From an uncultured Bacteroidota bacterium (GTDB lineage Bacteria > Bacteroidota > Bacteroidia > 2-12-FULL-35-15), in the NCBI GenBank assembly GCA_903870175.1, contig CAIQBY010000166.1, positions 1,395 to 65,394 of the forward strand: a stretch of 64,000 nt of DNA. The letters run 5' to 3'. This document shows positions 3,390-45,520 of this stretch, piece by piece (the first letter of the stretch is position 1; every line of letters starts with the position of its first letter). Made by a program: the position numbers and the translations under genes. The notes beneath the pieces are model-generated. The model made no database searches, was not told the origin of the DNA, and was given only the letters and a program-made list of their open reading frames with translations.

Positions 3390-3625
3390 TTTTTCTGAAA
3401 ATCTGTTAAGATTTTCGGAAAACTTGTGATGATTTTCGGAAAACAATCAAACGATGATGAAAATTTGCAAAGATTTTCGGAAAACTTACAATGATTTTCA
3501 GAAAATTTGTGATGATTTCAAGTAATCTTTGAATGATTCATGAAATCAGTGAAGATTTTGTAAAAATGTTAAATGATTTTCAGTAAATCTTTGAAGAGTT
3601 TCAGTAAATCTTCAAAGATGTCCAA
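3390..3625. repeat. Degenerate 21-bp tandem repeat array (~11 units, consensus ~GATTTTCGGAAAACTTGTGAT) in divergent intergenic region
   Basis: Unit starts recur every 21 bp (gattttcggaaaacttgtgat / gattttcagaaaatttgtgat / gattttcagtaaatctttgaa ...). Lies between the start of the minus-strand lipoprotein gene and the plus-strand T9SS gene. Confidence 0.8.
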
Positions 3626-3867
3626 AAAAGGCTTTTTTGCGTTCAAAATATCAATTTAATACAGTGATAATAAGTAAATCAATCAATAATTAAACACTTA
3701 AAATTTAGAAATCATATTAAAGTTAAATGTTAAAATAGTGTTTTATTACTTTTTTATGGCATTTGTAAAGTATATGTCGGACGATTTTGGTTCATTTCAA
3801 AATAGATGACGTCCTGAAAGCAAAAGACGACTTATTTCCAAAAATCACTCTTATATATAAGATAGAT

Positions 3868-3880
3868 TGTTTAGTTTTGT
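3868..3880 (+). promoter_or_regulatory. Candidate Bacteroidota -7 promoter box (TAnnTTTG) upstream of T9SS gene, inside duplicated module A
   Basis: ttTAGTTTTGtaaaacc lies ~25 bp upstream of the TTG start. The identical box recurs at 4851..4863 upstream of the second gene. Confidence 0.35.
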
Positions 3881-3898
3881 AAAACCAAATCCGCACAA

Positions 3899-4843
3899 TT
3901 GAAAAAGTACCTGTTTTTATTTATTGGAATACTGTTTTTTGTGAATGTAAAGGCGCAAGTACCAAATTTTTTTGTTGATGGCTCTGTTTGGTCATATTAT
4001 ACACAGGAAAGCTATGAACCTAATATGTGTACAACTCAAAACACATTGGAGAATGATTCAATACAAGGAGATACGGTAATAAATAGTATTAGTTATAAAA
4101 AATTATTTGCCTTGAGTCAGGTATCTATTCAAACTTATTATCCTTGTTATAATGGCACTACTTATCCAGTTGGTACAACTCTAAAATTTATTCGATATGA
4201 TACAGTAACGAGAAAACTATTTATGAAAAATGATACCGGCACTTATGTACCTGAAATACTGTTATACAATTTTAATCTCATCGCAGGAGATACGATTCCA
4301 CTTATTCCTGGCTACAATAGTGGTTTTAGTGGATGTAGAATTATTGATTCCGTAAAAAGTATTATATTTTTTGGAATCCCTGTTCGCAAATTTTATATGC
4401 CTTATATGCCGAGTAATCATCAGGGAAATTATATTATTGAAGGAATGGGAGGCTCAAATGGGTTAACTTTTTTTCAGCCTCAAATGATTTTATCGTCAGG
4501 CGGATATTATTTAACATCACTTAATTGTTTTAAATCTGGAAATAATGTTTACCCAAATGGGGCTTCTTGTCCTTCATTTATTCCAGTAGGCATCCAAGAA
4601 CTCCAAAACAAAACAACATTAGAACTTTCGCCAAACCCAAATAACGGCAGCTTCACAATTACAAGCAATAATCCACAACTAAAAACCATACATATATATA
4701 ATGTACTTGGCGAAGAAGTTTTTCATTCCGAAATCAACAATACTAAATCCGAAATCATAACAAACAATTTGCCAACGGGAATATATTTTGTAAAAGTTTC
4801 TTCGGAAAAAGAAGTGCTTACAAAAATGATGGTGAAGGAATAA
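3899..4843 (+). CDS. Secreted protein with T9SS (Por) C-terminal sorting domain
   Basis: 314 aa with a TTG start. Signal peptide MKKYLFLFIGILFFVNVKA. The last ~75 aa (LSPNPNNGSFTI...GIYFVKVSSEKEVLTKMMVKE) are a typical T9SS type-A CTD. Confidence 0.75.
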   Translation: MKKYLFLFIGILFFVNVKAQVPNFFVDGSVWSYYTQESYEPNMCTTQNTLENDSIQGDTVINSISYKKLFALSQVSIQTYYPCYNGTTYPVGTTLKFIRYDTVTRKLFMKNDTGTYVPEILLYNFNLIAGDTIPLIPGYNSGFSGCRIIDSVKSIIFFGIPVRKFYMPYMPSNHQGNYIIEGMGGSNGLTFFQPQMILSSGGYYLTSLNCFKSGNNVYPNGASCPSFIPVGIQELQNKTTLELSPNPNNGSFTITSNNPQLKTIHIYNVLGEEVFHSEINNTKSEIITNNLPTGIYFVKVSSEKEVLTKMMVKE

Positions 4844-4881
4844 GATAGATTGATTAGTTTTGTAAAACCAAATCCTCACAA

Positions 4882-5475
4882 TTGAAAAAGTACCTGTTTT
4901 TATTTATTGGAATACTGTTTTTTGTGAATGTCTCATGTAAAAAAGACCAGTCAATAATTAATGTAGTTATTCCAAACGGTGATTTTGAAAATTGGGATTG
5001 GTTACAATTCCCTCAAAATTGGAAAACTAATAGCTGCCCGCCATGCACACCACCTTACGAAATGAATATAGCTCAGGAAGATTCCCTTGAAGTATATCAT
5101 GGAAAATACAGTGTAAAATTAATATATAATTTAACTCCACCGATTTTGGGAGCTGCACCAACATGGTTAAAAAATAAATTTGCAATCACTGACCATCCTA
5201 ATAATTTGCATGGATATATTAAGTGCAATATACATGGTACAGATACTGTGTACATCGGAATCAAGTTGTTGAATAGAGGAGTAACAGTTGATGAAGGAAA
5301 TTGGAAAAGCACTGTAACAATAAACAATTGGACTTTAGTTAACATTCCAATTTCACAATCAAACTCAACAATTGATTCTGCTCTTATAACAATTATTGGA
5401 GGGAAATTCAAAGACTCAACCACAACTATGACGAATAGTACTACGTTTTGGGTTGATAATTTATTTTTGAATTGA
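4882..5475 (+). CDS. Hypothetical secreted protein (lipoprotein-like) sharing signal peptide with upstream T9SS gene, lacking a CTD
   Basis: 197 aa with a TTG start. The first 16 aa and ~90 bp upstream are identical to gene 3899. VNVSC suggests a lipobox. An in-frame stop comes before the orphan CTD fragment at 5508..5583. Confidence 0.5.
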   Translation: MKKYLFLFIGILFFVNVSCKKDQSIINVVIPNGDFENWDWLQFPQNWKTNSCPPCTPPYEMNIAQEDSLEVYHGKYSVKLIYNLTPPILGAAPTWLKNKFAITDHPNNLHGYIKCNIHGTDTVYIGIKLLNRGVTVDEGNWKSTVTINNWTLVNIPISQSNSTIDSALITIIGGKFKDSTTTMTNSTTFWVDNLFLN

Positions 5476-5507
5476 AAAAATTGAGATGGCAATAAAATTC
5501 ATATAGA

Positions 5508-5583
5508 TTTGCCAACGGGAATATATTTTGTAAAAGTTTCTTCGGAAAAAGAAGTGCTTACAAAAATGATGGTGAAGGAATAA
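5508..5583 (+). pseudogene. Orphan 3' fragment of a T9SS C-terminal sorting domain (duplicate of 4768..4843)
   Basis: 76 bp identical to the last 25 codons plus stop of gene 3899..4843. It is not in frame with, and is separated by a stop from, gene 4882..5475. Confidence 0.7.
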
Positions 5584-5760
5584 ACACCGCGATTCGTAAA
5601 TTCGTACTATTAGTTATCCGTACCTACTTTGCTCCCTATGCAGAAAATAAAATAACATATCTTCATTATTTATCAACCAATAAAAATTCACACACTTATT
5701 ATCCTTAATTTTGCCGCGCAACTTTCAAACTTTGAACTTTACAATTTTGAACTAATTAAA

Positions 5761-6858: not shown

Positions 6859-6875
6859 AAACAAAGTACTTCACA

Positions 6876-9049: not shown

Positions 9050-10942
9050 ATGGATAAAAATTCAGTAATAGGTCTTGTAATAATAGGCGGTATTTTAATG
9101 GGTTGGATGTACTTTTCAAGACCAAGTGCGGAACAGCTTGCAATTCAAAAACGTATGCAGGATTCTACTCTTGCTTATGTGAAAGTTCAGGAAACCCTTG
9201 CAACAACTCACAAAACTAATAAATCAACTCATACTGCAGGTTCAGGAATCTCAACAGATTCAATTGTTAACCTGAGCGATTCGGCCAAATCTGTTCTTAA
9301 GAAATCTGTATATGGCGATTTTGCTGATGCTTCCACTGGTGATAACAAAACAATTGTACTTGAAAATGAAGTGATGAAAGTAAATGTTTCTCCGAAAGGA
9401 GGACGCATTTCTTCTGTCGAATTAAAGAAATATAAAACATATGATGGCAAGCCTTTGATGTTATTTAATGCAGATTCTTCTACTCAAAAGCTAACATTTG
9501 CCACCTATAATAAGTCATTTGCAACAGATTCATTATATTTTACTCCAGTAGGTGATGCATTTATCCTGACAGGTAAAGCTTCCAAAAGCCTTGCTATGAG
9601 ATTGTATGCAGGCAGTAAAGAAAAATACATTGAATATGTTTATACTCTTACTGGAGATGAATATATGATGGGCTGTAAAATAAATACGGTAGGTATGCAA
9701 AGCGTAATCCCTGCAACCAAAGGGGAAATAGAGCTTAACTGGCAAATGAAAACACCTACGCAGGAACAAAATAAACAAAACCAACAACGTGCCTCCACCA
9801 TCTATTATAATACAATTGAAGATGGGGTTAAAAAGATAAGTGAAGGTACGGAAGATAAGATATCATTTGATACTAAAATGAAATGGGTGGCTTTTAAACA
9901 GCAGTTTTTTACTTCGATTATTATTGCCGATAATACATTTGAAAAACATACGGAAGTAGAATCTGCAATGGAAAAAACTTCTGCTAAATATATAGCAAAT
10001 TATGCCGCAACATTTTCTATTCCTTATAAAGGTTTACCAAATGAATCATTTGGAATGCGTTTTTATTTCGGTCCTAACCATTATCAAACACTCAAAAAAT
10101 ATGATGTTGATATAGAACGACAAATAAATCTTGGCTGGAAAATATTCGGATGGATTAATCGTTTCCTTGTTATTCCAATTTTTAATGTGTTGAATAGTTT
10201 TAATTGGAATTATGGAATTATTATTCTTGTACTTACTATTATTCTTAAATTATTATTGTTGCCGATAGCTTATAAAACAGTGCTTTCGTCTGCAAAAATG
10301 AAAGTATTGAAACCTGAGATTGATGAATTAAACGAGAAGTTTAAGGATGCAGAACCTGTTAAAAAACAACAGGCAACTATGGCTCTTTACAAGCAGGCAG
10401 GTGTTAATCCGATGGCAGGCTGTATTCCAGTACTGCTTCAAATGCCTATACTTATAGCTTTGTTTAACTTCTTCCCTGCGTCTATCGAATTACGTCAGCA
10501 GGGATTCCTTTGGGCGCATGATTTATCGTCTTACGATTCGGTTTACAACTTTGGTTTTTCCGTTCCATGGTATGGCGACCATGTTAGCTTGTTTGCTTTA
10601 TTGATGACTGGTTCCACATTATTATATACCTGGAGCAACAGTCAATTGATGGGCACTCAGCAACAAATGCCGGGTATGAAATGGATGATGTACTTGATGC
10701 CGATTATGTTCCTCGGTTTCTTGAATAATTACTCTGCAGGATTAAGCTGGTATTATTTCCTTGCCAATATGATTACTTTTGGACAGACTTGGGTGATGCA
10801 GAAATTTGTGATTGACCATGATAAATTGCATGCAAAAATTCAAGCCAATAAAAAGAAACCTGTTACAAAGTCAAAGTTTCAGGAGCGTTTGGAACAAATG
10901 ACAAAAGAGCGTCAGCAACAAACACCGGCGAAGAAAAAATAA
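9050..10942 (+). CDS. yidC: Membrane protein insertase YidC (long Bacteroidota form)
   Basis: 630 aa. Large periplasmic domain followed by a conserved YidC/Oxa1 core (LPIAYKTVLSSAKMKVLKPEIDELNEKFKD..ALYKQAGVNPMAGCIPVLLQMPI). Confidence 0.9.
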   Translation: MDKNSVIGLVIIGGILMGWMYFSRPSAEQLAIQKRMQDSTLAYVKVQETLATTHKTNKSTHTAGSGISTDSIVNLSDSAKSVLKKSVYGDFADASTGDNKTIVLENEVMKVNVSPKGGRISSVELKKYKTYDGKPLMLFNADSSTQKLTFATYNKSFATDSLYFTPVGDAFILTGKASKSLAMRLYAGSKEKYIEYVYTLTGDEYMMGCKINTVGMQSVIPATKGEIELNWQMKTPTQEQNKQNQQRASTIYYNTIEDGVKKISEGTEDKISFDTKMKWVAFKQQFFTSIIIADNTFEKHTEVESAMEKTSAKYIANYAATFSIPYKGLPNESFGMRFYFGPNHYQTLKKYDVDIERQINLGWKIFGWINRFLVIPIFNVLNSFNWNYGIIILVLTIILKLLLLPIAYKTVLSSAKMKVLKPEIDELNEKFKDAEPVKKQQATMALYKQAGVNPMAGCIPVLLQMPILIALFNFFPASIELRQQGFLWAHDLSSYDSVYNFGFSVPWYGDHVSLFALLMTGSTLLYTWSNSQLMGTQQQMPGMKWMMYLMPIMFLGFLNNYSAGLSWYYFLANMITFGQTWVMQKFVIDHDKLHAKIQANKKKPVTKSKFQERLEQMTKERQQQTPAKKK

Positions 10943-20232: not shown

Positions 20233-22530
20233 ATGAGTATTTCAAAACAATCAACTTACAGTTTACTCTTTGTAATGTTGTTTTTGTTTTCTTTCAAAAT
20301 AATTCAGGCACAAAGAGTAGGGTTGGTACTTAGTGGTGGCGCAGCAAGCGGCATTGCTCATATTGGAGTGATTAAAGCCTTGGAAGAAAATCATATTCCG
20401 ATTGATTATATTACAGGCACTTCAATGGGCGCTTTTGTAGGTTCGCTATATGCAATGGGGTATTCTCCTGTGCAAATGGAAGAACTTGTAAAGTCTGAGC
20501 GATTCAGGAATATGTCAGAAGGTATAATTGACCAGAAATATGCTTATTATTTCAAGCGTGATGATGCTAATGCTTCCTGGATAACCGTTAGACTTTTTGA
20601 TTCTGCTCTTGTTTCGGCTTTACCTACTAATGTTATTTCTCCTACTTCCATGGATTTTGGGATGATGGAAATTGCCGGAGCACCTGCCGCAGCTGCCGGT
20701 TATAAGTTCGATAGTTTGTTTGTTCCTTTTCGTTGCGTTGCATCTGATATCGAAAAGAAAGAATCAATAGTTTTTAAAGACGGTGATTTGGCACAGGCGG
20801 TAAGGTCTTCCATGTCGTACCCTTTTTATATTCGTCCTATTTTAGTGGACGGAAAATTATTATTTGATGGTGGTTTGTATAATAATTTCCCTTCAAATAT
20901 TATGTATAGTGATTTTTATCCTGATTTTATGATTGGCTCAAACGTGAGCTCGAACAATCCTCCGCCGGATGAAGACAATATTCTATCACAAATAAAAAGC
21001 ATGTTGCAAAGTAAATCGAACTTTGATTTGCCATGTGAAAATGGAATAATTATTCAGCCGAAAACAAATGTTGGTCTTTTTAATTTTAGCAATGTGCAGC
21101 CATTAATTGATAGCGGATATGCTGCAACAATTCGGCAAATAGACTATATAAAAAGAAATGTTGAAAGAAGGACGGTTCCTTCAGAATTAACAGCAAAAAG
21201 AACTGCTTTTAAAGCCAAAGAACCACTTGTAATTTTCGATAATATTATTATTGAAGGCTTAAACATGACCGAATCGGATTATGCAAGGAAAGTACTTCGG
21301 AATAAAAATACCAAAGTGGATTTGGAAGCTATTAAAGCAGGATATTTTCGTCTTTCGGCAGATAATAAAATAAAATATATTTACCCTACTACAAAATATA
21401 ATTCTCAAACAGGATTTTACGATTTGTACCTGCGCATTAAAAAAGAGAAGCATCTTATTCTCGATTTTGGCGGAGTATTCTCAAGTCGCCCTATTAGTGA
21501 GGGATACATTGGCATAAAATATAATGAACTTGGTAAATTTGCTACGTCAATAATGGCGAATGGATATTTTGGAAAGCTATATAACTCGGCACAAATAAAA
21601 GCACGATTTGATTATCCATTTAGAGTTCCGCTATATATTGAGCCGGATATTACATGGAATAAATTTGATTATTATAAGAGCAGCAGCGCGTTTCTGCAGG
21701 ATATAAAACCTGAATATTTATTGCAAAATGAAGAATTTGCAATGTTGAATATCGGCCTGCCTACTGGCAAAAAAGGGCGTGTAGTGATGGGTGCTGGTGG
21801 CGGGCAAATAACTGATAAATATTACCAAACTACTGTATTTACTCCCAAAGACACTACCGACAGAAATGATTTTGACTTCTATTCAGTTCAGGCATATTAT
21901 GAAATTAATACGCTGAACCGAAAACAATATGCTAATCAAGGAGAATATTTGAATTTCAAAATCCGCTATGTAAGCGGTGTTGAAAAAAACGAACCCGGTT
22001 CTACTTCTACTGATACGGTTGATAATTATACGAATCGTCATGAATATTATGTATTGAAATTAACCGGTGAAAAATATTTCAATAGGAGAGGAACGATAAA
22101 AATCGGACTTTTTGGAGAAGGTGTTTATTCTACTCAAACATTATTCAGGAATTATATAGCTACCGTATTATCTGCTCCCGCTTTTCAACCTACTATGGAT
22201 AGCAGAACGCTTTTTCTGGAAAATTATCGTGCCAATGAATATTTTGCCGGAGGTTTAAAATTTGTCGTCAATATTCGAAAAAATGTTGAAATACGTTTTG
22301 AGGGATATATTTTCCAGCCGTATCAGGCTTATATCCGAACTGCGGATAATAAAACTGATTATACACTTCCTTTTGCTTTGCAACATTATATTGGGTCGGG
22401 AGCTATTGTTTGGGATACTCCAATCGGACCGATGAGCCTTGGTGTAAATTATTACGATCAGGTGGTGAATCCTTTCTCCATTGATTTCCACTTTGGTTAT
22501 ATTTTATTTAATAAACGGGCGTTGGAATAG
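20233..22530 (+). CDS. Patatin-like phospholipase fused to Omp85/BamA-like outer-membrane beta-barrel
   Basis: 765 aa. Signal peptide. Patatin motifs GGAASGIAHIGV and GTSMG (GxSxG). The long C-terminal region looks like a surface-antigen beta-barrel. Confidence 0.85.
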   Translation: MSISKQSTYSLLFVMLFLFSFKIIQAQRVGLVLSGGAASGIAHIGVIKALEENHIPIDYITGTSMGAFVGSLYAMGYSPVQMEELVKSERFRNMSEGIIDQKYAYYFKRDDANASWITVRLFDSALVSALPTNVISPTSMDFGMMEIAGAPAAAAGYKFDSLFVPFRCVASDIEKKESIVFKDGDLAQAVRSSMSYPFYIRPILVDGKLLFDGGLYNNFPSNIMYSDFYPDFMIGSNVSSNNPPPDEDNILSQIKSMLQSKSNFDLPCENGIIIQPKTNVGLFNFSNVQPLIDSGYAATIRQIDYIKRNVERRTVPSELTAKRTAFKAKEPLVIFDNIIIEGLNMTESDYARKVLRNKNTKVDLEAIKAGYFRLSADNKIKYIYPTTKYNSQTGFYDLYLRIKKEKHLILDFGGVFSSRPISEGYIGIKYNELGKFATSIMANGYFGKLYNSAQIKARFDYPFRVPLYIEPDITWNKFDYYKSSSAFLQDIKPEYLLQNEEFAMLNIGLPTGKKGRVVMGAGGGQITDKYYQTTVFTPKDTTDRNDFDFYSVQAYYEINTLNRKQYANQGEYLNFKIRYVSGVEKNEPGSTSTDTVDNYTNRHEYYVLKLTGEKYFNRRGTIKIGLFGEGVYSTQTLFRNYIATVLSAPAFQPTMDSRTLFLENYRANEYFAGGLKFVVNIRKNVEIRFEGYIFQPYQAYIRTADNKTDYTLPFALQHYIGSGAIVWDTPIGPMSLGVNYYDQVVNPFSIDFHFGYILFNKRALE

Positions 22531-22629
22531 TTTATTGGTTCATTAGTCTGTAAATAAAAAACTTTAATAATTTCGAGAAATAATGAATAATCGATTGATT
22601 TTATATTCCGGAAATGAACCAAAACTAAT

Positions 22630-22850
22630 TTTCCCACGCCCATAGGAAATTTTCCCGTTCCCGTTGGAACCATTCCCACTCCCGTTTGAATCGTTCCCTC
22701 TCCCGTTTGAACCGTTCCAGTTCCCGTTGGAACGGTTCCAATTACCGTGGGAACCGTTCCCATTACCGTGGGAATCTTTCCCGTTCCCGTTGGAACCGTT
22801 CCAACGACCGTGGGAACCATTCCCACTACCGTGGGAACCGTTCCCACGGC
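22630..22850. repeat. 21-bp tandem repeat array (~10.5 units, consensus TGGGAACCGTTCCCATTACCG) each containing the palindrome GGAACNGTTCC
   Basis: A periodic array sits in the 428-bp intergenic space between the convergent patatin and mlaD genes. Both overlapping ORFs (22497-22847 minus; 22664-22993 plus) are heptapeptide-repeat artefacts of the array. Confidence 0.85.
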
Positions 22851-22958
22851 TAATTATTTTAACTAAAGTGCTGTTTTATAGCATATTGACTTTATTAAGG
22901 AAGAGAAATTGGGCTTTGGAAGCTTTTTTGGAACGTGAATCTGGAAATCCAAATAGTA

Positions 22959-23942
22959 TTATTTCTTCTCTTTCTCTTTATCCTGCTTTTTGAAATACTT
23001 TTTGAAAGGCCAGGTATGTCGTAAAGCAATCATATTTTCATTAAAGTTTCCTGCACCTTCTTTCACGTTCAACATACTTTTATTAAGATTATGAACAAAC
23101 ATGGTATCAGTAAGCAACGTACCGATTGAGCCTTTTCCATTCTTCAAGTTATTGGAAATAGTTTTGAAATTGCCTGAAATAATAGCAACCGAATCGCTGA
23201 TGGAATGTATATTTACTATAGTTTGATTTAAAGTATGCGAAAAAGTGGTATCGGTAAGCAATGCACCCACAGAGCCTTTTCCGGATTTAATATCTTTTAC
23301 TATTTTGCTCAAATCCCCTGTGATAACTGCCGTATTGTCACCAGTAACTTTAAATCGAATAACAGCATTTCTAACATTTTCGGCTAAAGTTGAATCAGTC
23401 AACAAATGCCATAATGAATTGTTATTATTGAATTTTTCGGATACTCCTTTTAAATTATCAGTAATCACTTTTAAATTATCATTAGTCATTGTAAGGGTTC
23501 GCAAGGCATTGTCCATCTGTAATGGATTCAGCGTAATTAATACACTTCCTTCTTCCACAGATTTAGACCCTTCTTTACCCGGTGAAATATTTATCAGTTT
23601 ATTACCTAGCAATCCATCAGTACCAATAGATGCAATTGCATTTTTCATTATAAATTTTGTGGATTCCTTATCAATAGTAAAATCTACTTTAATAGTTGTA
23701 TCCGAAGAAGAAGATACTTTGGAAACAGTACCTACGTTGATTCCATTAAAACGCACATTATTGCCGGATACCAATCCATTAACATTATTAAAATTTGCAC
23801 TCACATTTATTGTTGAATGAAAAATATTTTTCTTGCTTCCTATATAATACAAACCAAGTATGAGGAAGGTGGTAGCGATTAATACAAAGGCTCCAAGTTT
23901 GGCTTTATTTGCTGATTGTTCTTTCATTTTTGTTTTAATCAA
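22959..23942 (-). CDS. mlaD: MlaD/MCE-family substrate-binding protein
   Basis: 327 aa. N-terminal TM followed by an MCE domain (NVNGLVSGNNVRFNGINVGTVSKV). Confidence 0.8.
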   Translation of the reverse strand: MIKTKMKEQSANKAKLGAFVLIATTFLILGLYYIGSKKNIFHSTINVSANFNNVNGLVSGNNVRFNGINVGTVSKVSSSSDTTIKVDFTIDKESTKFIMKNAIASIGTDGLLGNKLINISPGKEGSKSVEEGSVLITLNPLQMDNALRTLTMTNDNLKVITDNLKGVSEKFNNNNSLWHLLTDSTLAENVRNAVIRFKVTGDNTAVITGDLSKIVKDIKSGKGSVGALLTDTTFSHTLNQTIVNIHSISDSVAIISGNFKTISNNLKNGKGSIGTLLTDTMFVHNLNKSMLNVKEGAGNFNENMIALRHTWPFKKYFKKQDKEKEKK

Positions 23943-32156: not shown

Positions 32157-32287
32157 TACTGGTTCATTAGTTTATTTGTTCATTAGTCTGCATAAAAAAA
32201 GCCCCGAATTTCTTCGGAGCTAAATTATCGCATCTTCCTCTCAAACCTCTTTTTAAAGTCAATGCAATAATGAACTATAATTTCTCC

Positions 32288-32950
32288 TTAAATAATAAGC
32301 GTATTAAATGCTTCCCCATCTTCTCCTTTTTCATTTGTAGGGCTTAAATAATAAGCAATCATCCAAAACTGCTTGCCTACATCGGGAAGTGTGAGAAGAC
32401 GTTGAAACTTTGAATTTTTTTCAGGGATTTGAGTCGCATAATCAGTATCCACAGGCACAACTCCAACCGGCATTATTGCTATTTTCCATCCATACGAACC
32501 TGCTCCATAAGGTTTTGTTGTTTTATCTGGGAATTCAGGGTCAAACACAAATAAGCCAATAGACATTGATGATTTTCCGGTACTTGTTACATTTGGTTTC
32601 GCTTTGGTTACCGGTATTTTACTTTTACGTGTTGCTACAATTGGAATTACAAGGCTCAAACGGTCGGCTCCGGTTAACGGCACTATGGCAACATTGCCTC
32701 TCAAAACATTTTTTATTCCCTCGGTTATCACATAATTTGTATTATATAACCCATTCATATCTGATGTAACTCCGCCATTATTTTGAGCAGGGTCGGTGTA
32801 CATATCAAAATTTATAGTCCACGCTTTCCACATATCTGTAAGAACAAGTGCCTGTGCTGCTAATTGTAATCTTACCTGATTATTGTTGATGTAATTTACA
32901 AATATTCTTAAAAAAAAGTTGTAAAGGATAATTTTTATTGAATTTTTCAT
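32288..32950 (-). CDS. Hypothetical protein
   Basis: 220 aa ORF with no recognisable motifs. The start is uncertain. Confidence 0.4.
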   Translation of the reverse strand: MKNSIKIILYNFFLRIFVNYINNNQVRLQLAAQALVLTDMWKAWTINFDMYTDPAQNNGGVTSDMNGLYNTNYVITEGIKNVLRGNVAIVPLTGADRLSLVIPIVATRKSKIPVTKAKPNVTSTGKSSMSIGLFVFDPEFPDKTTKPYGAGSYGWKIAIMPVGVVPVDTDYATQIPEKNSKFQRLLTLPDVGKQFWMIAYYLSPTNEKGEDGEAFNTLII

Positions 32951-33088
32951 GATTTTGTTGTTTTTAATTGTTAAATTATTAATTGTTTATTGCTGATTTT
33001 TTATTGTTAAACTGACCTGTAATTGCTTGATTTGTACTCTTTAAATCCTATTTATTTTTTGGATTCAACCTCCAAAACACATTTTTTT

Positions 33089-33350
33089 ACCTTGTTTTTC
33101 TCCTTGTTTCAATAAGAATGGATATTGTTTGAATGATATCCGATATTATTTGAACAAGAACCAATCTTATTTGAACAAGAACCAATCTTGTTTCAATATG
33201 AACCTACCTTGTTTAAATGATATCCGATCTTGTTTGAATGATATCGGATATTATTTGAACAAGAACCATTATTGTTTCAATAAGAACCAATCTTATTGAA
33301 ACAAGATCCATTCTTGTATGAATAAGATCCATTCTTATTGAAACAAGGAG
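33089..33350. repeat. 21-bp tandem repeat array (~12 units, consensus ~RTTTGAAYAAGAWCCAATCTT) bounded by 24-bp inverted repeats
   Basis: Units include gtttgaatgatatccgatatt, atttgaacaagaaccaatctt and others. The terminal inverted repeat is ctccttgtttcaataagaatggat (33100-33123) paired with atccattcttattgaaacaaggag (33327-33350). Located in an 840-bp divergent intergenic region. Confidence 0.85.
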
Positions 33351-33789
33351 ATTTTTACCCTTTTCAAGTTCTTATTTCCTGTTTTAGAGAACTAAAAATG
33401 CACTTCAAAGAACTGTTTTTTTGCTTTTTAATGTTGAGGAAAGCTTCCTTTAAAAATCTTTTAATCTTTAATAAGACAGATTTAAGGAAGAAGGGGCACA
33501 GAATCTTACTGATGAGTTACCCGCTAACTTTGGATGCATCTCGAAACTATTTGTTTCTACCGGTAAAATTATGTTTTAAACGAATACCAAATGAATAAAT
33601 CTTTTTGAAATACCAGTATTTTCAGATATTTGGGCTGGAGAGGAGTGCTATGATAGATTATAAAAGTTATCAACCGTCTTAAATTATTTTCTTAAAAGAC
33701 GTTTTGAAGAGATAATTGCGTAGTATTTAGAAATTATACGCATTATATTATATACATTTGTATTATCAAATAAATTAATCCTCCTTAAA

Positions 33790-35880
33790 ATGAAAAGAAT
33801 TACTCTCTCCTTATCAGTTATTGTAGCACTTACAATTCTTTCGTTTACAAGCCGAGCACAAACAAATGTGAGTGGCGGAATACACGTAAATACTACTTGG
33901 ACTTTAGCAAATAGTCCGTATATAGTAGTAGATACTGTGGTTGTATTTCCGGGGATAACGCTTACTATACAACCGGGTGTTGTTGTGAAATTTAATAATA
34001 CAATGCAACTTGAAATAAGGCAGGCAACGCTAATAACAAATGGAACAAGTGCAAATCCAATTACTTTTACAAGTAATTCAAGTTCGCCGACACCAGGTAT
34101 TTGGGAAAGTATTTATTTAAACCAATGTGTTTCTGCGGGTTTTAATTACTGTAATTTTAGTTATTCAAAATATGGAATTGCTAATTCAAGTACTCTTCAA
34201 ATATCAATTAAAAACTCAAATTTTACATTTAATACAAATGGAATTTATCAATGTTTTATCAATATGGATTCATGTGTTTTCAAACATAATACAAATGGTA
34301 TTAATACTGCCATGGGTCCTGGGAAAATACTTAATTCCATTTTTACAAATAATCAGAGTGGATTATTAAATAATGACGGCTCCAAAACAATAAATTGTAT
34401 TTTCAATTCCAATCAAACTGGAATAACCATAAGCGGATATAGGGTTTTAATAAAAAATTGTGTAGTTGATTCTAATACCACATTAGGAGTTAGTTTACCC
34501 CCAAGTGGAAATTATGATACCATATTTAATAATCAGATAAAATATAACGGCATTGGTTTGGAAAGTGCCGCTGCTTCAAGTGGTGCAATAATAACTAAAA
34601 ATGTTTTTGATAATAACAATATAGGCATTAAAGAAAGCAATAATGTCGATTCTATATATTGTAATAGAATTTGTAACAGTACTTCCTACGCTTTTTATTA
34701 TAATGCAAATTCTAATTATAATGCATATTTAGGAAATAATTATTTTTGTACCCCCGATTCTATTTCAACAGCAGCTGTAGTTTATGATGGATATGACAAT
34801 ATAAATTATGGCTTAGTAAATTTTATGCCGCTTGATACAACCAATTGTTATCAAACTGGTTGCAATCTTCATGTCTCAGCAAATATTACCAGTGCAACTT
34901 GCAGGACTTGCCCAAATGGTTCAGCAATTGCTCATGTTCTATACGGTTTTCCTCCATATACATACACTTGGTATTCTACACCAATTCAAAACACACAAAC
35001 AGCTATAGGTTTGGCTTCCGGCAATTATGGAATATGTGTTACAGACGCAAACGGATGTTCCGCCTGCGACACTATTTTTGTAGACTCTACAAATTGTACT
35101 GGGTTTTCCATTGTTCCAAACTCAACTAATGCTTCGTGTACTACCTGTGCTGATGGTACAGCTAAAGTTATTCCAACAGGCGGCACAGCACCATATCATT
35201 ATACTTGGTACACTAGCCCTATGCAAACAACAGACTCTATTTCAGGATTAATTCATGGTACTTATCATGTTTGTGTTACTGATGCGAATGGTTGTATATC
35301 CTGCGATTCAACTACTGTGAATGTTGGAAGTTGTTCGGCACATTATAATCTGTATTCTACTGCCACTCCGCATTATTATACAGCTGTGAATATGGCTTCG
35401 GGCGCAGCGCCTTTAACCTATTACTGGAGTTGGGGAGATGGCACACACGATACAGCAGCATATCCAAGTCATACCTATGCTGCAACAGGTTTTTACAATA
35501 TCTGCCTCACTATTACCGATAATGCTGGATGTACCAATACCTATTGTTCTTCATATTATTTACTCCGTCCGCAAAGTCAAATGGTTTATGTAAATGTAAT
35601 TTCAAATACAACAGTTGGTATAAATCAATTGATAGCAGATAATTCTATTTCAATTTATCCCAATCCATTCACCTCCCAAACAACAATTTCTTTTTCTACC
35701 GAACAAACAAATACTTCAATAAAAATAACAGATGTGGTAGGCAAAGAAATAAAAACAATAAACTTTACCGGCACACAATATATTTTGGAAAAAGGAATAA
35801 TGAAGCCAGGTATTTATTTCGTGCAGATAACGGATGCCAATAAAAATGTGGTGAACAGAAAAATAATTATTAATGATTAG
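33790..35880 (+). CDS. Secreted parallel beta-helix / Cys-rich repeat protein with T9SS C-terminal sorting domain
   Basis: 696 aa. Signal peptide. Beta-helix-like N-rich repeats, then three ~80-aa Cys-rich modules (C.TC..G.A...GG.PYTYTWY...GL..G.Y.VCVTDANGC), a PKD-like segment, and a T9SS CTD (SIYPNPF...GIYFVQITD). Confidence 0.8.
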   Translation: MKRITLSLSVIVALTILSFTSRAQTNVSGGIHVNTTWTLANSPYIVVDTVVVFPGITLTIQPGVVVKFNNTMQLEIRQATLITNGTSANPITFTSNSSSPTPGIWESIYLNQCVSAGFNYCNFSYSKYGIANSSTLQISIKNSNFTFNTNGIYQCFINMDSCVFKHNTNGINTAMGPGKILNSIFTNNQSGLLNNDGSKTINCIFNSNQTGITISGYRVLIKNCVVDSNTTLGVSLPPSGNYDTIFNNQIKYNGIGLESAAASSGAIITKNVFDNNNIGIKESNNVDSIYCNRICNSTSYAFYYNANSNYNAYLGNNYFCTPDSISTAAVVYDGYDNINYGLVNFMPLDTTNCYQTGCNLHVSANITSATCRTCPNGSAIAHVLYGFPPYTYTWYSTPIQNTQTAIGLASGNYGICVTDANGCSACDTIFVDSTNCTGFSIVPNSTNASCTTCADGTAKVIPTGGTAPYHYTWYTSPMQTTDSISGLIHGTYHVCVTDANGCISCDSTTVNVGSCSAHYNLYSTATPHYYTAVNMASGAAPLTYYWSWGDGTHDTAAYPSHTYAATGFYNICLTITDNAGCTNTYCSSYYLLRPQSQMVYVNVISNTTVGINQLIADNSISIYPNPFTSQTTISFSTEQTNTSIKITDVVGKEIKTINFTGTQYILEKGIMKPGIYFVQITDANKNVVNRKIIIND

Positions 35881-35898
35881 TTTATAATATCACTCAAA

Positions 35899-35941
35899 CC
35901 AAAAAAACTCTTTACAAAACGTAAAGAGTTTTTTTGTTTTA
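35899..35941. terminator. Bidirectional hairpin terminator (AAAAAAACTCTTTAC..GTAAAGAGTTTTTTT), copy 1 of a 43-bp direct repeat
   Basis: Perfect 11-bp stem flanked by A- and T-runs. Identical sequence (1 mismatch) recurs at 36556..36598. Confidence 0.75.
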
Positions 35942-35988
35942 AAATAAGAAGGAAGTAAATAACGTATCTTTGTAAGAAAATAAAAACA

Positions 35989-36222
35989 ATGAAAGGGAAA
36001 ATAATAAATATAGACAAGGATATTTTAGGAGGCACGCCGGTATTCAGCGGCACAAGAGTTCCTGTAAAAAATTTATTCGATTATCTGGAAGCAGGTAAAT
36101 CTATTGACGAATTTGTTGAAGACTTTGATACGATAAAGAAAAAACAAATACTTGAACTATTGCAAATATCAAATAAATTATTAATTAACTCAACCAAGAT
36201 ATTAAATGAAAATTTTGCTTGA
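35989..36222 (+). CDS. DUF433-family protein (putative antitoxin)
   Basis: 77 aa. GGTPVFSGTRVPV..L..YLEAG is characteristic of DUF433. Overlaps the downstream gene by 17 bp. Confidence 0.65.
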   Translation: MKGKIINIDKDILGGTPVFSGTRVPVKNLFDYLEAGKSIDEFVEDFDTIKKKQILELLQISNKLLINSTKILNENFA

Positions 36223-36529
36223 TGAGTGTGTTACCAAAAAAATAAAAACTTTACTTCCCGAGCATAAAGTTTTTACAATAGGACAAATGGGATGGGCTGG
36301 ACTTAAAAATGGGAAGTTGCTTACTAAAGCTGTTGAAAACAAGTTTGACATATTGCTTACGATTGATAAAAATATTAATTACCAACAAAACATTTCGAAA
36401 TATAATATTTCGCTTATTGTATTAAATGTAAATGACAGTAATATTGAAACAATAGCAGATTTTATTCCGAATTTTAATGCGCAAATAAAAAAAATTGAAA
36501 AAGGGAGAACGTATCTTATTGAGAAATAA
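36206..36529 (+). CDS. DUF5615-family PIN-like protein (putative toxin)
   Basis: 107 aa. MKILLDECV..K N-terminus typical of DUF5615 proteins, which pair with DUF433. Confidence 0.6.
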   Translation: MKILLDECVTKKIKTLLPEHKVFTIGQMGWAGLKNGKLLTKAVENKFDILLTIDKNINYQQNISKYNISLIVLNVNDSNIETIADFIPNFNAQIKKIEKGRTYLIEK

Positions 36530-36555
36530 TATGTGATTCTACTCATTACTTTACT

Positions 36556-36598
36556 ACAAAAAAACTCTTTACAAAACGTAAAGAGTTTTTTTGTTTTA
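36556..36598. terminator. Hairpin terminator, copy 2 of the 43-bp direct repeat
   Basis: Same sequence as 35899..35941, immediately after the DUF5615 gene. Confidence 0.75.
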
Positions 36599-36801
36599 TG
36601 CAGTTTCAGTAAATACACTTCCCCATCAACCCAATCTGGGAAATATGCTAGCCATATAACACCAAGCTTAGCAGTTCTGCGTCTTTTAACCTTGAAAACT
36701 CAGAAATAAAAAACTGACTAATATCAGTTTTTTTAATGATTTCTCTCATGTATGTAATTTAAATATCCTTCTATTTTTGCTCTGTAAAAAAACAGAAAAT
36801 A

Positions 36802-36990
36802 ATGGGCGTTTTAGTCATTTTAGTAGGTATAAGTATTATAGTAGCATTAGGGTTCTTAATCGCTTTTATATGGAGTGTGAAAACGGGGCAGTATGAAGAT
36901 GATTATACACCGTCAGTAAGAATGCTGTTTGACAACGAACCGATAATAAAAAAGAGTAACGAAGATAAATCAATAATAAATAATCAGTAA
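36802..36990 (+). CDS. ccoS: cbb3-type cytochrome oxidase maturation protein CcoS/FixS
   Basis: 62 aa. A single TM (VLVILVGISIIVALGFLIAFIWSVKTGQYED), typical of CcoS. Upstream of ccoNO. Confidence 0.7.
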   Translation: MGVLVILVGISIIVALGFLIAFIWSVKTGQYEDDYTPSVRMLFDNEPIIKKSNEDKSIINNQ

Positions 36991-37015
36991 TAAATAATCA
37001 ATAATCAGTAACACT

Positions 37016-41994: not shown

Positions 41995-42019
41995 TAAATA
42001 ATTTTTAAAACATAAAGTC

Positions 42020-42466: not shown

Positions 42467-42482
42467 TTATTTTCAATCCCAA

Positions 42483-43193: not shown

Positions 43194-43198
43194 AAAGA

Positions 43199-43654
43199 AT
43201 GAGTACTGTAAGATTAACAAAAGAATTTAATTTCGAGATGGCTCATGCTCTTTTCGGTTATGATGGCCCCTGCAAAAATGTGCACGGACATTCGTATAAA
43301 CTTTCCGTTACCATAAAAGGGAAACCGATAATTAATGGAAAGGATGCAAAATTCGGGATGGTAATGGATTTTAACGAATTGAAAAGTATTGTAAAACCAA
43401 TTATTGACGAGCTTGATCATGCAACAATGCTGAATACGAACTCGCCGCATAAAAAACTTGCAGAAAAAAATTCGCTGTTCGAAAAGCTTGTTTTGGTGAA
43501 TTATCAGCCAACTTGTGAAAATATGCTTATCGATATGGCAGATTATATTAAGCTTCGCTTGCCAAAAAATGTTACCTTGCATCACTTAAAATTACAAGAG
43601 ACGCCAACTTCGTACGCTGAATGGTTTGCTGAGGATAATTTAAAAGAAAAATAA
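43199..43654 (+). CDS. 6-pyruvoyl-tetrahydropterin synthase / QueD-family protein
   Basis: 151 aa. EFNFEMAHAL..CKNVHGHSY, a catalytic Cys/His triad typical of PTPS/QueD. Confidence 0.85.
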   Translation: MSTVRLTKEFNFEMAHALFGYDGPCKNVHGHSYKLSVTIKGKPIINGKDAKFGMVMDFNELKSIVKPIIDELDHATMLNTNSPHKKLAEKNSLFEKLVLVNYQPTCENMLIDMADYIKLRLPKNVTLHHLKLQETPTSYAEWFAEDNLKEK

Positions 43655-43677
43655 ATATTAACTAAACGCCCTGTACC

Positions 43678-45039
43678 GTGAACAATCATCTAATAAAAAA
43701 GTACAATGTAGCCGGCCCTCGCTACACAAGTTATCCAACAGTTCCTTATTGGAACGATAAACCGATAACAATAAAAGACTGGAAAAAGTCTATAAAAAAC
43801 ACATTTGATGCTACCAACGAACATGATGGTATTTCACTTTATATACATTTACCTTTTTGCGAAAGTTTGTGTACATATTGCGGCTGCAATACCCGGATTA
43901 CAATTAATCATGCAGTGGAAATTAAATACCTGAATGCGGTATTGAAAGAATGGAAAATGTATCTGGAAGTGTTGAAAGAAACTCCCCGAATTAAAGAAAT
44001 TCATTTGGGAGGAGGAACACCTTCTTTCTTTTCGCCGGAAAATTTGAAGAAGCTTATTGATGGAATTATGGAAAATTCCAAAAAATGCAAGGATGCAGAA
44101 TTCAGTTTTGAAGCGCATCCGAACAATACTACTTTCGAGCATTTAAAGACACTTTACGATATTGGTTTCAGAAGATTGAGTTTGGGAATTCAGGATTTTG
44201 ATGTCAAAGTTCAAGAAATTGTAAATCGTATTCAGCCATTTGAAACGGTAGAAAAGGTTGTAAATCAGGCAAGAAATCTGGGTTATACTTCCATTAATTT
44301 TGATTTGATTTATGGGTTGCCTTTGCAGACACGCAAATCGGTAATTGATACTATTAATAAGGTAAATATTCTTCGACCTGACCGGATTGCGTTTTACAGT
44401 TATGCGCATGTGCCTTGGGTAAAACCGGGACAACGTAAATTTACAGAATTGGATTTGCCTGTAGATGAGGAAAAAAGAGCTTTGTATGAAATCGGCAAGG
44501 AAAAATTCTCGGAAATGGGATATTGTGAAATAGGAATGGACCATTTTGCATTGAAAACCGATAGCTTATATACAGCTGCAGAATATGGTAAATTGCATCG
44601 TAACTTTATGGGTTACACTCATTCTTATACTAAATTAATGATTGGGCTGGGCGTTTCGTCTATCAGTGATACCTGGAATGCGTTTGCACAAAACGTGAAA
44701 AAGGTGGAAGAATATTATGAGTGTATTAATAATAATGAAATTCCTATTTTCAGAGGGCATGTACTGAGCAAGGAGGATTTGATTATAAGGAAACACATAC
44801 TTAATATTATGTGTAAATTCAATACGAGCTGGGAAAAAGAGGAAGAACAATGTCAGGCTGTATATGATGCGGTGATGCGATTGGCGGAGATTGAAAGGGA
44901 TAAATTAATAACACTTAGTCCTTATCATTTGAAGGTGAAAAAGACGGGACGACCATTTATCCGGAATATTTGTATGGCTTTTGATGCTAAATTGTGGAGG
45001 AATATTCCACAATCGCAGATTTTCAGCAGTACTGTTTAG
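43678..45039 (+). CDS. hemN: Oxygen-independent coproporphyrinogen III oxidase (radical SAM, HemN)
   Basis: 453 aa. YTSYPT N-terminal motif, radical-SAM cluster (CESLCTYCGC), and a HemN C-terminal domain. Confidence 0.9.
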   Translation: MNNHLIKKYNVAGPRYTSYPTVPYWNDKPITIKDWKKSIKNTFDATNEHDGISLYIHLPFCESLCTYCGCNTRITINHAVEIKYLNAVLKEWKMYLEVLKETPRIKEIHLGGGTPSFFSPENLKKLIDGIMENSKKCKDAEFSFEAHPNNTTFEHLKTLYDIGFRRLSLGIQDFDVKVQEIVNRIQPFETVEKVVNQARNLGYTSINFDLIYGLPLQTRKSVIDTINKVNILRPDRIAFYSYAHVPWVKPGQRKFTELDLPVDEEKRALYEIGKEKFSEMGYCEIGMDHFALKTDSLYTAAEYGKLHRNFMGYTHSYTKLMIGLGVSSISDTWNAFAQNVKKVEEYYECINNNEIPIFRGHVLSKEDLIIRKHILNIMCKFNTSWEKEEEQCQAVYDAVMRLAEIERDKLITLSPYHLKVKKTGRPFIRNICMAFDAKLWRNIPQSQIFSSTV

Positions 45040-45116
45040 TGTCATAAATTTTATGACTTATAAATCTTAAATGTTTTTTTGTGCGGGCAACATCCTTCCA
45101 TGTTGCAATATTCTAA

Positions 45117-45220
45117 CCCGCTTTCCCCTCCAATCTTATTTGCCTTGAAAAAAGGCAAATAAGGATTTCCGGTATAATCGGGCGCAGTTGCAAGTGCATC
45201 GTTCTCCTAAAGTTTTCCAT
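45117..45220. ncRNA. Conserved ~105-nt intergenic element, copy 1 (strand unresolved). Contains hairpin TTATTTGCCTT/AAGGCAAATAA
   Basis: Near-identical to 62207..62310 outside the hairpin. The hairpin stems differ but both pair perfectly (compensatory). Confidence 0.45.
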
Positions 45221-45278
45221 ACCAGGAGAGTAGTTAAAATAGCAATTCATCCAAAACCAACAAGTTACAATTAACAAA

Positions 45279-45520
45279 ACTCCAAGTTTAGTCAGCCAAC
45301 CTCCAAGTATTGACACCAAACCTCTAAGTTTAGTCAGCCTGCCTCCAAGTATTGACACCAAATCTCCAAGTTTAGTCAGCCTGCCTCCAAGTATTGACAC
45401 CAAACCTCTAAGTTTAGTCAGCCTGCCTCCAAGTATTGACACTAAATCTCCAAGTTTAGTCAGCCTGCCTCCAAGTTTAGTTAGCCAACCTCCAAGTTTA
45501 CCAAGCAAACTTTTAAGTTC
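45279..45520. repeat. 42-bp (2 x 21-bp) tandem repeat array (~5.5 units: CTCCAAGTTTAGTCAGCCTGC + CTCCAAGTATTGACACCAAAY)
   Basis: Perfect or near-perfect copies immediately after conserved element copy 1, upstream of uvrD. The minus-strand ORF 45113-45571 is a heptad artefact of the array. Confidence 0.85.

Follow-up and report, generated by a model that had tools for sequence, protein, structure and literature searches.

The stretch of DNA considered here (the window) comprises 64,000 nucleotides of an uncultured Bacteroidota bacterium (contig CAIQBY010000166.1 of GenBank assembly GCA_903870175.1), and the focal genome is represented by these 64 kb only. It contains four tandem repeat arrays, A1 to A4, whose base period is 21 bp in every case, as determined with Tandem Repeats Finder (TRF) at strict and permissive settings and by plain autocorrelation. 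All ten TRF rows that score at least 90 in the window have a period of 21, 42, 63, 84 or 105, and no row of this score was obtained from 60 shuffled windows, i.e. A1-A4 are the sole strong tandem repeats of the window. An earlier note on this DNA, made from the letters alone, had pointed to four arrays of 21-bp period at these places, and its coordinates and copy numbers are right within one unit. Its count of A1 in 42-bp units needs correction, as the base period of A1 is 21 and not 42 (autocorrelation 0.58 vs. 0.50); the lags of A1 are 21, 83 and 62.

A1 is flanked by two divergent genes, one for a lipoprotein (2244..3200, minus strand) and one for a protein secreted through the type IX secretion system (T9SS; 3899..4843, plus), and TRF delimits the array as 3391-3518 plus 3564-3618 at strict settings and as 3391-3654 at permissive ones. 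A2 is found in the convergent gap between a patatin gene (20233..22530, plus) and mlaD (22959..23942, minus) and has a higher-order repeat of 63 bp. A3, with higher-order repeats of 84 and 105 bp, occupies the divergent gap between a 220-aa gene, g220 (32288..32950, minus), and a T9SS PKD/SprB protein gene (33790..35880, plus). A4 is situated between a Flavo-1 element and the uvrD/pcrA promoter region; its 42-bp unit consists of two 21-bp subunits with a common 9-bp core, CCTCCAAGT, and decayed units are seen at both edges. Altogether, arrays are held by divergent, tandem and convergent gaps, the gap includes one or more gene starts for about 12 of 14 arrays, and the neighbours are housekeeping or secreted-protein genes. 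The coordinates are collected in Table 1.

Table 1. Tandem arrays, Flavo-1 elements and spurious open reading frames (ORFs) of the window
Feature	Position	Strand	Description
A1	3391..3654	none	about 11.5 degenerate 21-bp units in two sub-families, core TTTTCgGAAAA, 62-79% match
A2	22631..22847	none	10.3 units of GTTCCCACTACCGTGGGAACC, 8-bp dyad arms, about 80% match
A3	33103..33347	none	about 11.7 units of CTTGTTTGAACAAGAACCAAT, 7-bp dyad arms, about 75% match
A4	45254..45519	none	core 45275-45500 with 5.4 copies of a 42-bp unit, 89% match
Flavo-1 no. 1	45097..45234	minus	Rfam core 45110-45189, 58.5 bits, plus a 5' extension of about 35 nt
Flavo-1 no. 2	62186..62326	minus	Rfam core 62200-62279, 67.7 bits, plus a 5' extension
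7-8-bp tandem repeat	62352..62397	none	CTTTAAA, about 6 copies, 26 bp from the 5' end of Flavo-1 no. 2
Spurious ORF over A2	22497..22847	minus	116 aa, overlaps the 3' end of the patatin gene
Spurious ORF over A4	45113..45571	minus	152 aa, heptads LGGRLTK/LGDLVSI, 3' end enters Flavo-1

The preference for a period of 21 bp is also found in related genomes. The comparison set was obtained by scanning species-representative genomes for the CcoI copper ATPase, which gave 80 loci from uncultured Bacteroidota (the nearest CcoI proteins are 95%, 81% and 75% identical, and several at about 72% are labelled Crocinitomicaceae); the related DNA compared, later additions included, amounts to 1.66-1.84 Mb, and the L-numbers used below denote loci or contigs of this comparison. 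A metagenome scan based on a radical S-adenosylmethionine (rSAM) gene yielded two usable close relatives only. Of 110 repeat clusters obtained at the default settings of TRF, 35 have a period of 21, and the arrays of at least 100 bp with at least 4 copies are all of period 21 or 42, each with a unit of its own. The histogram of arrays with at least 3.8 copies at permissive settings, which leaves out the window and same-strain contigs, has 15 arrays at 21 bp, none at 20, 2 at 22, 4 at 18 and none at 24. The earlier note had proposed a common mechanism that acts on the period and not on the sequence, and had named a genome-wide period histogram lacking any excess at 21 bp as the finding that would speak against it. 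For the window and its relatives the excess at 21 is sharp, which supports the proposal.

Weak intragenic repeats of period 21 (52-65% match) resemble the heptad periodicity of proteins, and the strong period-21 arrays are intergenic. Further intergenic 21-bp arrays occur in L123 (19844-19915) and L125 (2925-3013), among three loci that had been obtained later for another purpose. The short noncoding repeats of the relatives have many different periods. At least 3.8 copies are reached by 6 of 8 noncoding repeats of period 21 or 42 as opposed to 8 of 34 of other periods (Fisher p = 0.010), and the three longest noncoding arrays of the relatives are among the former set, i.e. period-21 repeats preferentially grow. 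The higher-order periods are 42, 63, 84 and 105 bp, or 62, 83 and 104 bp where one 20-bp unit is included; the latter correspond to a mean unit of 20.75-20.8 bp, that is, to about 10.4 bp per turn, and 22-bp units were not seen. Since contigs assembled from short reads often end at arrays, the frequency and length of arrays are probably underestimated in surveys of metagenome-assembled genomes (MAGs); examples of assemblies that end inside or just past an array are L002 (3554), L004 (21862), L083 and several contigs known from gene calls only. An assembly ceiling is the probable reason why array lengths appear to cluster at 217-270 bp. We found no described 21-bp repeat class in Bacteroidota in the literature searched.

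The arrays are noncoding. Stop codons are present in every frame of A1, A3 and the array of L039 (in all six for A1 and A3). The A2 unit is devoid of stop triplets, so that 4-5 frames are open across A2, and the number of open frames per array is that expected of random 21-mers. The variability within units has no codon-phase (mod-3) pattern, the variable positions being contiguous blocks. In the L004/L083 and L092 arrays, which are orthologous to A4, higher-order units of 83 and 104 bp (4 × 21 − 1 and 5 × 21 − 1) have been amplified, hence any reading frame is broken, and the ORFs across the L092 array are fragmented by frame shifts with no equivalent of the 152-aa ORF of A4. The ORFs that gene finders call over A2 and A4 have no non-repeat N-terminus and their length follows the copy number (116/123 aa for A2; 152/138/124 aa or absent for A4, depending on the allele); they are artefacts of stop-free units. 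Public assemblies annotate these repeat ORFs as genes, which leads to false entries in protein databases. In substance, then, the arrays are as intergenic as they had been described.

The period of 21 bp also brings to mind genes, or remnants of genes, for heptad-repeat proteins (7 aa = 21 bp), an origin that the earlier note had listed among the candidates. It is true that 21 is a multiple of 3, that gene finders call ORFs over two arrays, that heptads can be read in A4 (Table 1) and that weak 21-bp periodicity is enriched inside real genes. However, the arrays lack what is characteristic of such proteins, namely an uninterrupted frame conserved in relatives, substitutions concentrated in third positions and length changes in multiples of three. 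Added to this are the stop codons in every frame of three arrays, the missing codon-phase pattern, the frame-breaking 83- and 104-bp repeats, the lack of conservation in L092, the overlap of the ORFs with a neighbouring gene or with Flavo-1, and the number of open frames, which is that of random 21-mers. A heptad-coding origin is hardly credible in view of these findings.

The units themselves have no sequence in common. The best match between the consensus units of A1-A4 is 12 of 21 positions, which is the 95th percentile of the shuffled-unit null, and the earlier statement that the units are mutually unrelated is thereby confirmed. Distant relationships were also sought, including those between arrays of the same orthologous gap, and nothing beyond the shuffled level was found. 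Solo or dispersed copies of the units are absent from 1.66 Mb of the relatives' DNA, each unit being confined to its own locus. Neither terminal inverted repeats nor conserved terminal modules were detected at the arrays, and the flanks are similar between orthologous loci only. A dispersed family resembling miniature inverted-repeat transposable elements (MITEs) is rejected for the lack of solo copies, common flanks and terminal inverted repeats in the relatives' DNA and the 64 kb of the focal genome. A looser kind of relationship would be common descent from one ancestral mobile element with a 21-bp internal satellite, the period being inherited. The arrays are old, the drift of their sequences is about neutral in rate and leaves the period intact, and some of them lie beside Flavo-1-type repeats; moreover, other bacteria have modular elements of the BOX kind, in which the number of internal tandem units varies. 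Yet 1.66-1.84 Mb contain neither solo units nor flanks in common nor terminal inverted repeats, the arrays are at different positions in lineages at 52-60% CcoI identity (L039, L020, L022), and 20-bp unit variants arise and amplify, so that a period of 21 would not have been retained for so long through inheritance alone. On balance we consider common descent distinctly improbable.

The arrays persist at orthologous positions for longer than their sequences do. In L003, whose patatin and MlaD proteins are 89% and 90% identical to those of the window, the convergent patatin|mlaD gap, where A2 lies in the window, also holds an array of 21-bp period, and its unit is unrelated. Likewise, the gap downstream of a hemN-like rSAM gene, which is the gap of A4, contains 21/42-bp arrays in the window, L004/L083, L092 and L024, and three unrelated unit types are found among these. 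An array is present in this gap in 4 of the 5 lineages whose rSAM protein is at least 76% identical to that of the window and in none of about 17 more distant ones. At the fourfold-degenerate sites of the flanking genes, the identity to the window is 43-44% for L003 and 25-30% for L004/L092/L024, the saturation value being 30% (L004 and L092 are 86% identical to each other). With these sites near saturation, unrelated units at the same position are what neutral drift predicts. Despite this drift of the units across lineages, the similarity within arrays is 75-89%. The features that survive are the tandem organisation, the similarity within arrays and the period, which is concerted evolution of long-lived arrays. 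Two further points concern these loci. In L083 an ORF resembling an insertion sequence (MATRTQFKMTESERRSRTFSDTFK...) starts directly after the array (about 9137-9208), where L092 has uvrD. The synteny upstream of aroC, in the neighbourhood of A1, is not conserved among the relatives, and contigs break there.

Copy-number variation between strains was studied in lake-metagenome contigs that encode the flanking proteins, the A4 alleles being taken from contigs with an identical neighbouring protein. Compared to the window, the A4 alleles differ by 0, exactly −42, −84 and −189 bp. A private single-nucleotide polymorphism (SNP) marks the −42 allele, the −84 allele is the loss of exactly one 84-bp super-repeat, and the −189 allele was found in two independent assemblies. 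The sequences at the junction of the latter share only about 15-25 bp, therefore it is not a collapse of the k = 141 assembly; the −84 allele could be an assembly collapse, but the −42 and −189 alleles are not explained in this way. At A2, an allele of +21 bp (L116) has one perfect extra unit, and L118 differs by one SNP. Between L004 and L092 the unit family is common, while the number of copies (15 vs. about 20) and the order of the units are different. The perfect extra unit and the whole-unit alleles show that units are gained and lost by slippage or unequal exchange. The strain-to-strain variation that the earlier note had suggested looking for is thus found for A4 and A2, and the slipped-strand expansion that it had listed among the possible causes is directly evident from the alleles. 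A4 and A2 are head-to-tail repeats with a unit of 10-100 bp that differ by whole units between strains with identical flanks, as is characteristic of variable-number tandem repeats (VNTRs) or minisatellites. It is very probable that the arrays are VNTRs that change by whole units and are kept alike by concerted evolution.

The conserved element near A4, which recurs at a second site in the window, is the Flavo-1 motif (RF01705; Rfam, gathering score 42 bits). A4 starts 20 bp from the 5' end of Flavo-1 no. 1, and Flavo-1 no. 2 is just upstream of an alpha-2-macroglobulin-like gene (57571..~62190, minus). The 7-8-bp repeat that had been noticed after the second copy of the conserved element is indeed present; it has the same position relative to Flavo-1 as A4, but its period is not 21. 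Flavo-1 is an abundant computational motif (Weinberg et al. 2010, PMC2864571), whose matches in F. psychrophilum are sense or antisense to transcripts, or outside transcripts (PMC9723704). Among the relatives, L122 has a copy above the threshold (55.3 bits) and L024 has a sub-threshold match on the other side of its array (22126-22282, 29.8 bits, E = 0.023). Diverged elements in L125 and L024 were found through a match in the flanks of the arrays, and the one in L123 with a hidden Markov model (HMM) built from five elements (E = 6e-14). These variants (L125, L123 and L024a) are missed by the Flavo-1 model of Rfam (E > 1); our own alignment, the HMM and the similar fold suggest that they are Flavo-1-type elements. 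The variant hairpin class (L125 2708-2863, L123 20277-20443, L024 21010-21215) has the pattern ACTGCRCC.GACCCGCG.GAAGTATCC T-run ... A-run GATACCGCGTG.GGGC.GG and might warrant a separate family or sub-model.

A stretch of about 35 nt is conserved 5' of the Rfam motif (ATGGAAAACT..AGGAG.ACGAT), both in the two window elements (45097-45234 and 62186-62326, minus) and in L125 (2708-2863); it starts with ATG in three of five elements and is not conserved as an ORF. In single-sequence folds, all seven elements are predicted to form the same kind of long imperfect hairpin, with an A/U-rich stem and a variable apical insert. The closing stem covaries (CCCG/CGGG, CCUG/CAGG, CCGG/CCGG), and RNAalifold gave no consensus over the seven elements, the alignment being disrupted by the apical insertions.

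A tandem repeat is found within 400 bp of six of the seven elements, always on the 5' side of the element. Five of the six are 21/42-bp arrays, with the L024 array counted twice as it is bracketed by two divergent elements, and the sixth is the 7-8-bp repeat of the window. If elements were placed at random, with orientation, in noncoding DNA, 4 of 6 would correspond to P ≈ 2.5e-7, a value that is biased because two elements were found via the flanks of arrays; of the four elements found blind to the arrays (both of the window, L122 and L123), two have a 21-bp array (P ≈ 8e-4, at 0.0114 per element). The presence of a tandem array 5' of most Flavo-1-type hairpins is a new observation, and an association of Flavo-1 with tandem repeats is not mentioned in the published descriptions searched (PMC2864571, PMC9723704, PMC9029176). 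This directional link, the clade-wide spread and the long-term persistence of position go beyond the earlier note. Neither a Flavo-1-type element nor a long hairpin is present near A1-A3 or near the arrays of L003, L004/L092, L039, L024c, L020, L022 and L031, and no other long hairpins lie beside A1-A3. The possibility that A4 and Flavo-1 are one module was rejected, since the similarity between the two Flavo-1 loci ends at the element of about 150 nt.

Another possibility is that the arrays are functionless by-products of a mutational ruler, i.e. of a lineage-specific DNA processing activity that would make or expand duplications of about 21 bp from any local sequence and would possibly recognise Flavo-1-type hairpins. 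Such an activity would explain why the period is the same regardless of sequence, context, symmetry and predicted curvature, the repeats consistently found on the 5' side of six of seven hairpins would reflect a strand-asymmetric process, and the near-loss of A4 in the −189 bp allele indicates that the array is dispensable. On the other hand, there is no long hairpin, whether of the Flavo-1 type or not, in the vicinity of about 11 of the 16 arrays, the repeat at Flavo-1 no. 2 has a period of 7-8 bp, and the short noncoding repeats of many periods indicate that the birth of repeats is not limited to 21. In addition, no candidate enzyme was found, and persistence past synonymous saturation is hard to square with neutral by-products in a deletion-biased genome. 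We find this explanation doubtful. We also speculate about a lineage-specific molecular ruler, a DNA-processing enzyme or an architectural protein, that would measure two turns of the helix and would build or maintain the 21-bp arrays from any local sequence, with the Flavo-1-type hairpin as its recognition or partner element, which seems quite unlikely to us.

Some of the arrays are symmetrical. The folding test detected dyad-symmetric units in five of nine arrays (A1, A2, A3, L024c and L024_42; z between −3.5 and −6.9 on both strands, with z = −4.7 for the self-complementary units of A1). A4, L004/L092, L039 and L003 have no hairpin potential beyond that of column-shuffled controls. As a test with perfect arms is significant for A2 and A3 only and the folding test for five of nine, dyad symmetry was rejected as a common property. 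Self-complementary units could mean that the arrays act as RNA, as strings of hairpins transcribed within untranslated regions or small RNAs that, like the repetitive extragenic palindromic (REP) sequences and bacterial interspersed mosaic elements (BIMEs), would serve as mRNA stabilisers, terminators or protein sponges. A2 suits this role: it would give ten hairpins with 8-bp stems (z about −4.4; −0.41 to −0.49 kcal/mol per nt), and it is preceded by the stop codon of the patatin gene and followed, near 22908-22927, by a hairpin that resembles a terminator and has a T-run. A1, A3 and both L024 arrays are likewise self-complementary. But the symmetry is equal on both strands, which argues for a dyad at the DNA level, the four arrays just mentioned have no such potential, and the common period is left unexplained. 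Furthermore, no Rfam family matches the arrays themselves at the threshold (CRISPR-DR6 reaches 23.8 bits in A3, the gathering score being 39). A function of the arrays as structured RNA thus appears improbable.

A dyad at the DNA level would be in line with arrays of sequence-specific binding sites, iteron-like or operator-like, that different regulators would use as cooperative or titrating platforms; the candidate proteins would be dimeric helix-turn-helix (HTH) regulators on a dyad, or LytTR/AraC-type regulators on direct repeats, with a geometry of about 21 bp. Besides the strongly symmetric units of five of nine arrays, there is the layout of A4, an invariant 9-bp core followed by a 12-bp variable spacer, which we take to match LytTR-type sites. 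The iterons of plasmids, too, have unrelated sequences and a common spacing of about 21-22 bp. The 9-bp core with the 12-bp part is the layout of A4, and the other arrays have different patterns. Four arrays, however, have no symmetry at all. No LytTR/AraC-type regulator was found beside the arrays, and the cores are not conserved between orthologous arrays, at a divergence near saturation. Arrays with unrelated units in the same orthologous gap speak against binding sites as well, with low power of the test at that divergence. Also, an operator would not commonly comprise 10-20 tandem sites, none of the arrays has a regulator or rep gene as its neighbour, DnaA boxes are absent beside them, and the clustered variable positions can be explained by few inherited variants. 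For the phased sites for paralogous regulators that had been suggested earlier, the findings are evenly divided, with operator-like dyads in some units and no conservation of the units between orthologous arrays. We judge binding-site arrays to be unlikely.

The only property common to all arrays is the period. Whole 21-bp units or blocks of units are gained and lost by slippage or unequal exchange, and concerted evolution keeps the units alike and gives rise to higher-order repeats. The unit sequence drifts freely, and the tandem layout and the period are retained at fixed intergenic positions. The constraint on the period would thus read length and not sequence, and its likeliest basis would be helical phase, 21 being the smallest whole number of base pairs that equals whole turns at 10.5 bp per turn. 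In steps of 21 bp an array could be lengthened or shortened while the promoter or hairpin elements on its two sides keep their mutual rotation, and each unit would show the same face of the helix. Consistent with helical phase, the higher-order periods equal multiples of 21 or one base less, and promoter-containing gaps house most of the arrays. Short repeats of other periods arise but fail to grow or persist. A subset of the arrays forms a directional pair with a Flavo-1-type hairpin, the array being on the 5' side of the hairpin, which would be its upstream or promoter region if it is transcribed. Multiples of 3 are not required, as a period of 83 bp is tolerated. That helical phase fixes the 21-bp period is a real possibility in our opinion, somewhat short of being probable.

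Several points weigh against this interpretation and need to be discussed. The helical-phase step is our inference; the sample consists of about 16 arrays, and the short-read MAG contigs are prone to break at arrays. The genes on either side of A2 and of the L003 array converge, and a spacing to a promoter that would have to be maintained is not evident there. Repeats of 10-11 bp would also come close to keeping the phase, but long arrays with such periods were not seen, and 21 is 3 × 7, so that a coincidence with heptad coding is possible on numbers, though the coding tests failed. In a wedge model, the predicted bend of the units is that of random intergenic 21-mers (21st-80th percentile); the whole arrays A1, A4, L004 and L092 are predicted to be strongly curved because of their repetition in helical phase, in contrast to the straight course predicted for A2 and A3. 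Selection for intrinsic curvature is thus not favoured, the units being not more bent than random 21-mers, and a simple function as curved DNA would not be general. Finally, A3 has no variation in the population, as it is identical in all 6 contigs with DNA and the gap is 840 bp in 10 of 10.

A few observations on the surroundings of the arrays are given here as they might be of interest for future studies. A3 is inside an insertion of about 4.7 kb (32157-37015) between ccoI and ccoS/ccoNO, as compared to L004-L015, which contains the 220-aa gene of no assigned identity, the T9SS PKD/SprB protein gene and a DUF433/DUF5615 pair; a homology between g220 and a gene of L022, suggested by eye, was unsupported by BLASTP. 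Beside ccoI there is a conserved pair found clade-wide, a response-regulator receiver domain fused to a cyclic-nucleotide (cNMP)-binding domain and a Crp-type HTH (27336-28394), adjoined by the gene of a PAS histidine kinase. Directly after the stop codons of the patatin gene and ccoI (22530-22540; 32162-32172) there is a GTTCATTGGTT-like motif, which forms 16-bp tandem repeats in L003 (12417-12450) and L031 (4347-4443); it was rejected as a flank motif of the arrays, as its count in the window is at the chance level. Upstream of uvrD, TACCTTTG is conserved (about 45612-45619 in the window and about 1368 in L092), with the end of A4 about 100 bp upstream, and presumably fits the −7 promoter box of Bacteroidota, TAnnTTTG. 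The only candidate of any length in the window with a period other than 21 is a weak, AT-rich array of 22-bp period in a divergent gap (56422-56546, 5.8 copies, 55% match). Tandem repeats of 7 bp are located near 21-bp arrays or gene starts (32964-33010, 36968-37011, 62352-62397, and 905-936 in L092), with the units TTAATTG (6.6 copies), AATCAAT (6.3 copies, directly upstream of the ccoNO ATG), CTTTAAA (6 copies) and TCTCAAA (4.6 copies); an internal periodicity of 7 bp was not detected in the 21-bp units by autocorrelation. L020 has a SAM (S-adenosylmethionine) riboswitch (RF00162, 1293-1407, minus, 83 bits), with no connection to the arrays.

Bacterial minisatellites are usually viewed as locus-specific accidents of slippage, whereas here a whole clade keeps one period regardless of sequence and beyond neutral saturation. 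The length of the repeat would therefore seem to be what is read, be it through the geometry of the DNA, by an architectural protein or in a dedicated process. The arrays are a natural system for studying the influence of helical phasing on intergenic DNA. To our knowledge, the pairing with arrays is the first contextual clue for Flavo-1, an abundant orphan motif of Flavobacteria. If a ruler with Flavo-1-type hairpins as its partner element acts on the arrays, Flavo-1 would gain a function at the DNA level and a new kind of repeat-generating system would be at hand. In practical terms, the arrays break short-read assemblies and spawn false proteins of copy-number-dependent length, and they could be used as strain-typing markers for uncultured freshwater Bacteroidota.

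It is worthwhile to compare the general features of the 21-bp arrays with known repeat systems. They are not arrays of clustered regularly interspaced short palindromic repeats (CRISPR), as the units abut without spacers and the total period is 21 bp, as opposed to repeats of 23-47 bp. The iterons of plasmid and phage origins are likewise direct repeats of about 17-22 bp, roughly two turns apart and unrelated in sequence, and this spacing is found here too; unlike iterons, the arrays are chromosomal, lie among housekeeping genes, have 10-20 copies (3-7 in iterons) and consist of units that are not conserved. The arrays are accompanied neither by a rep gene nor by a cluster of DnaA boxes or an AT-rich unwinding element, and for the lack of a rep gene and of DnaA boxes their being iterons or origins was rejected. 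Elsewhere in the window, three near-consensus DnaA-box 9-mers occur within 50 bp (62732-62779), in or beside an ORF (62392..63312).

BOX elements of Streptococcus pneumoniae and the REP/BIME elements of Enterobacteria are, as here, intergenic and contain hairpins, and the variable tandem boxB units beside the conserved modules of BOX resemble the pairing of an array with Flavo-1. In contrast to these elements, the array units are locus-specific and have no conserved terminal modules, and most arrays have no hairpin partner. As for Flavo-1 itself, the arrays are not part of the motif (RF01705), and in L024, L123 and L125 the arrays have hairpins related to it as neighbours. The short tandemly repeated repetitive (STRR) heptanucleotide sequences of cyanobacteria are similarly lineage-wide and noncoding with a characteristic unit length, and repeats of 7 bp are also present in the window; STRR families share their sequence, whereas the array units differ between loci.

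At first sight, the satellite DNA of eukaryotes is very different, alpha-satellite extending over megabases rather than about 250 bp, in a host that is not bacterial, and with the length of a nucleosome rather than two helical turns as its period. Nevertheless, both evolve in a concerted manner, both have higher-order units and a position that outlasts the sequence, and the period, which in alpha-satellite is thought to reflect a structural ruler, outlives the sequence in both cases. We propose no centromere-like role for the arrays. The bacterial VNTRs used as markers in multiple-locus VNTR analysis (MLVA) and the mycobacterial interspersed repetitive units (MIRUs) are likewise noncoding, intergenic head-to-tail repeats that differ by whole units between strains through slippage or unequal exchange, and they too are mishandled by gene finders and assemblers. 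As far as we know, the periods of VNTRs in described species are spread widely between loci (e.g. 6-125 bp). In the present clade, by contrast, the long arrays all have a period of 21 bp and persist at orthologous positions beyond synonymous saturation.

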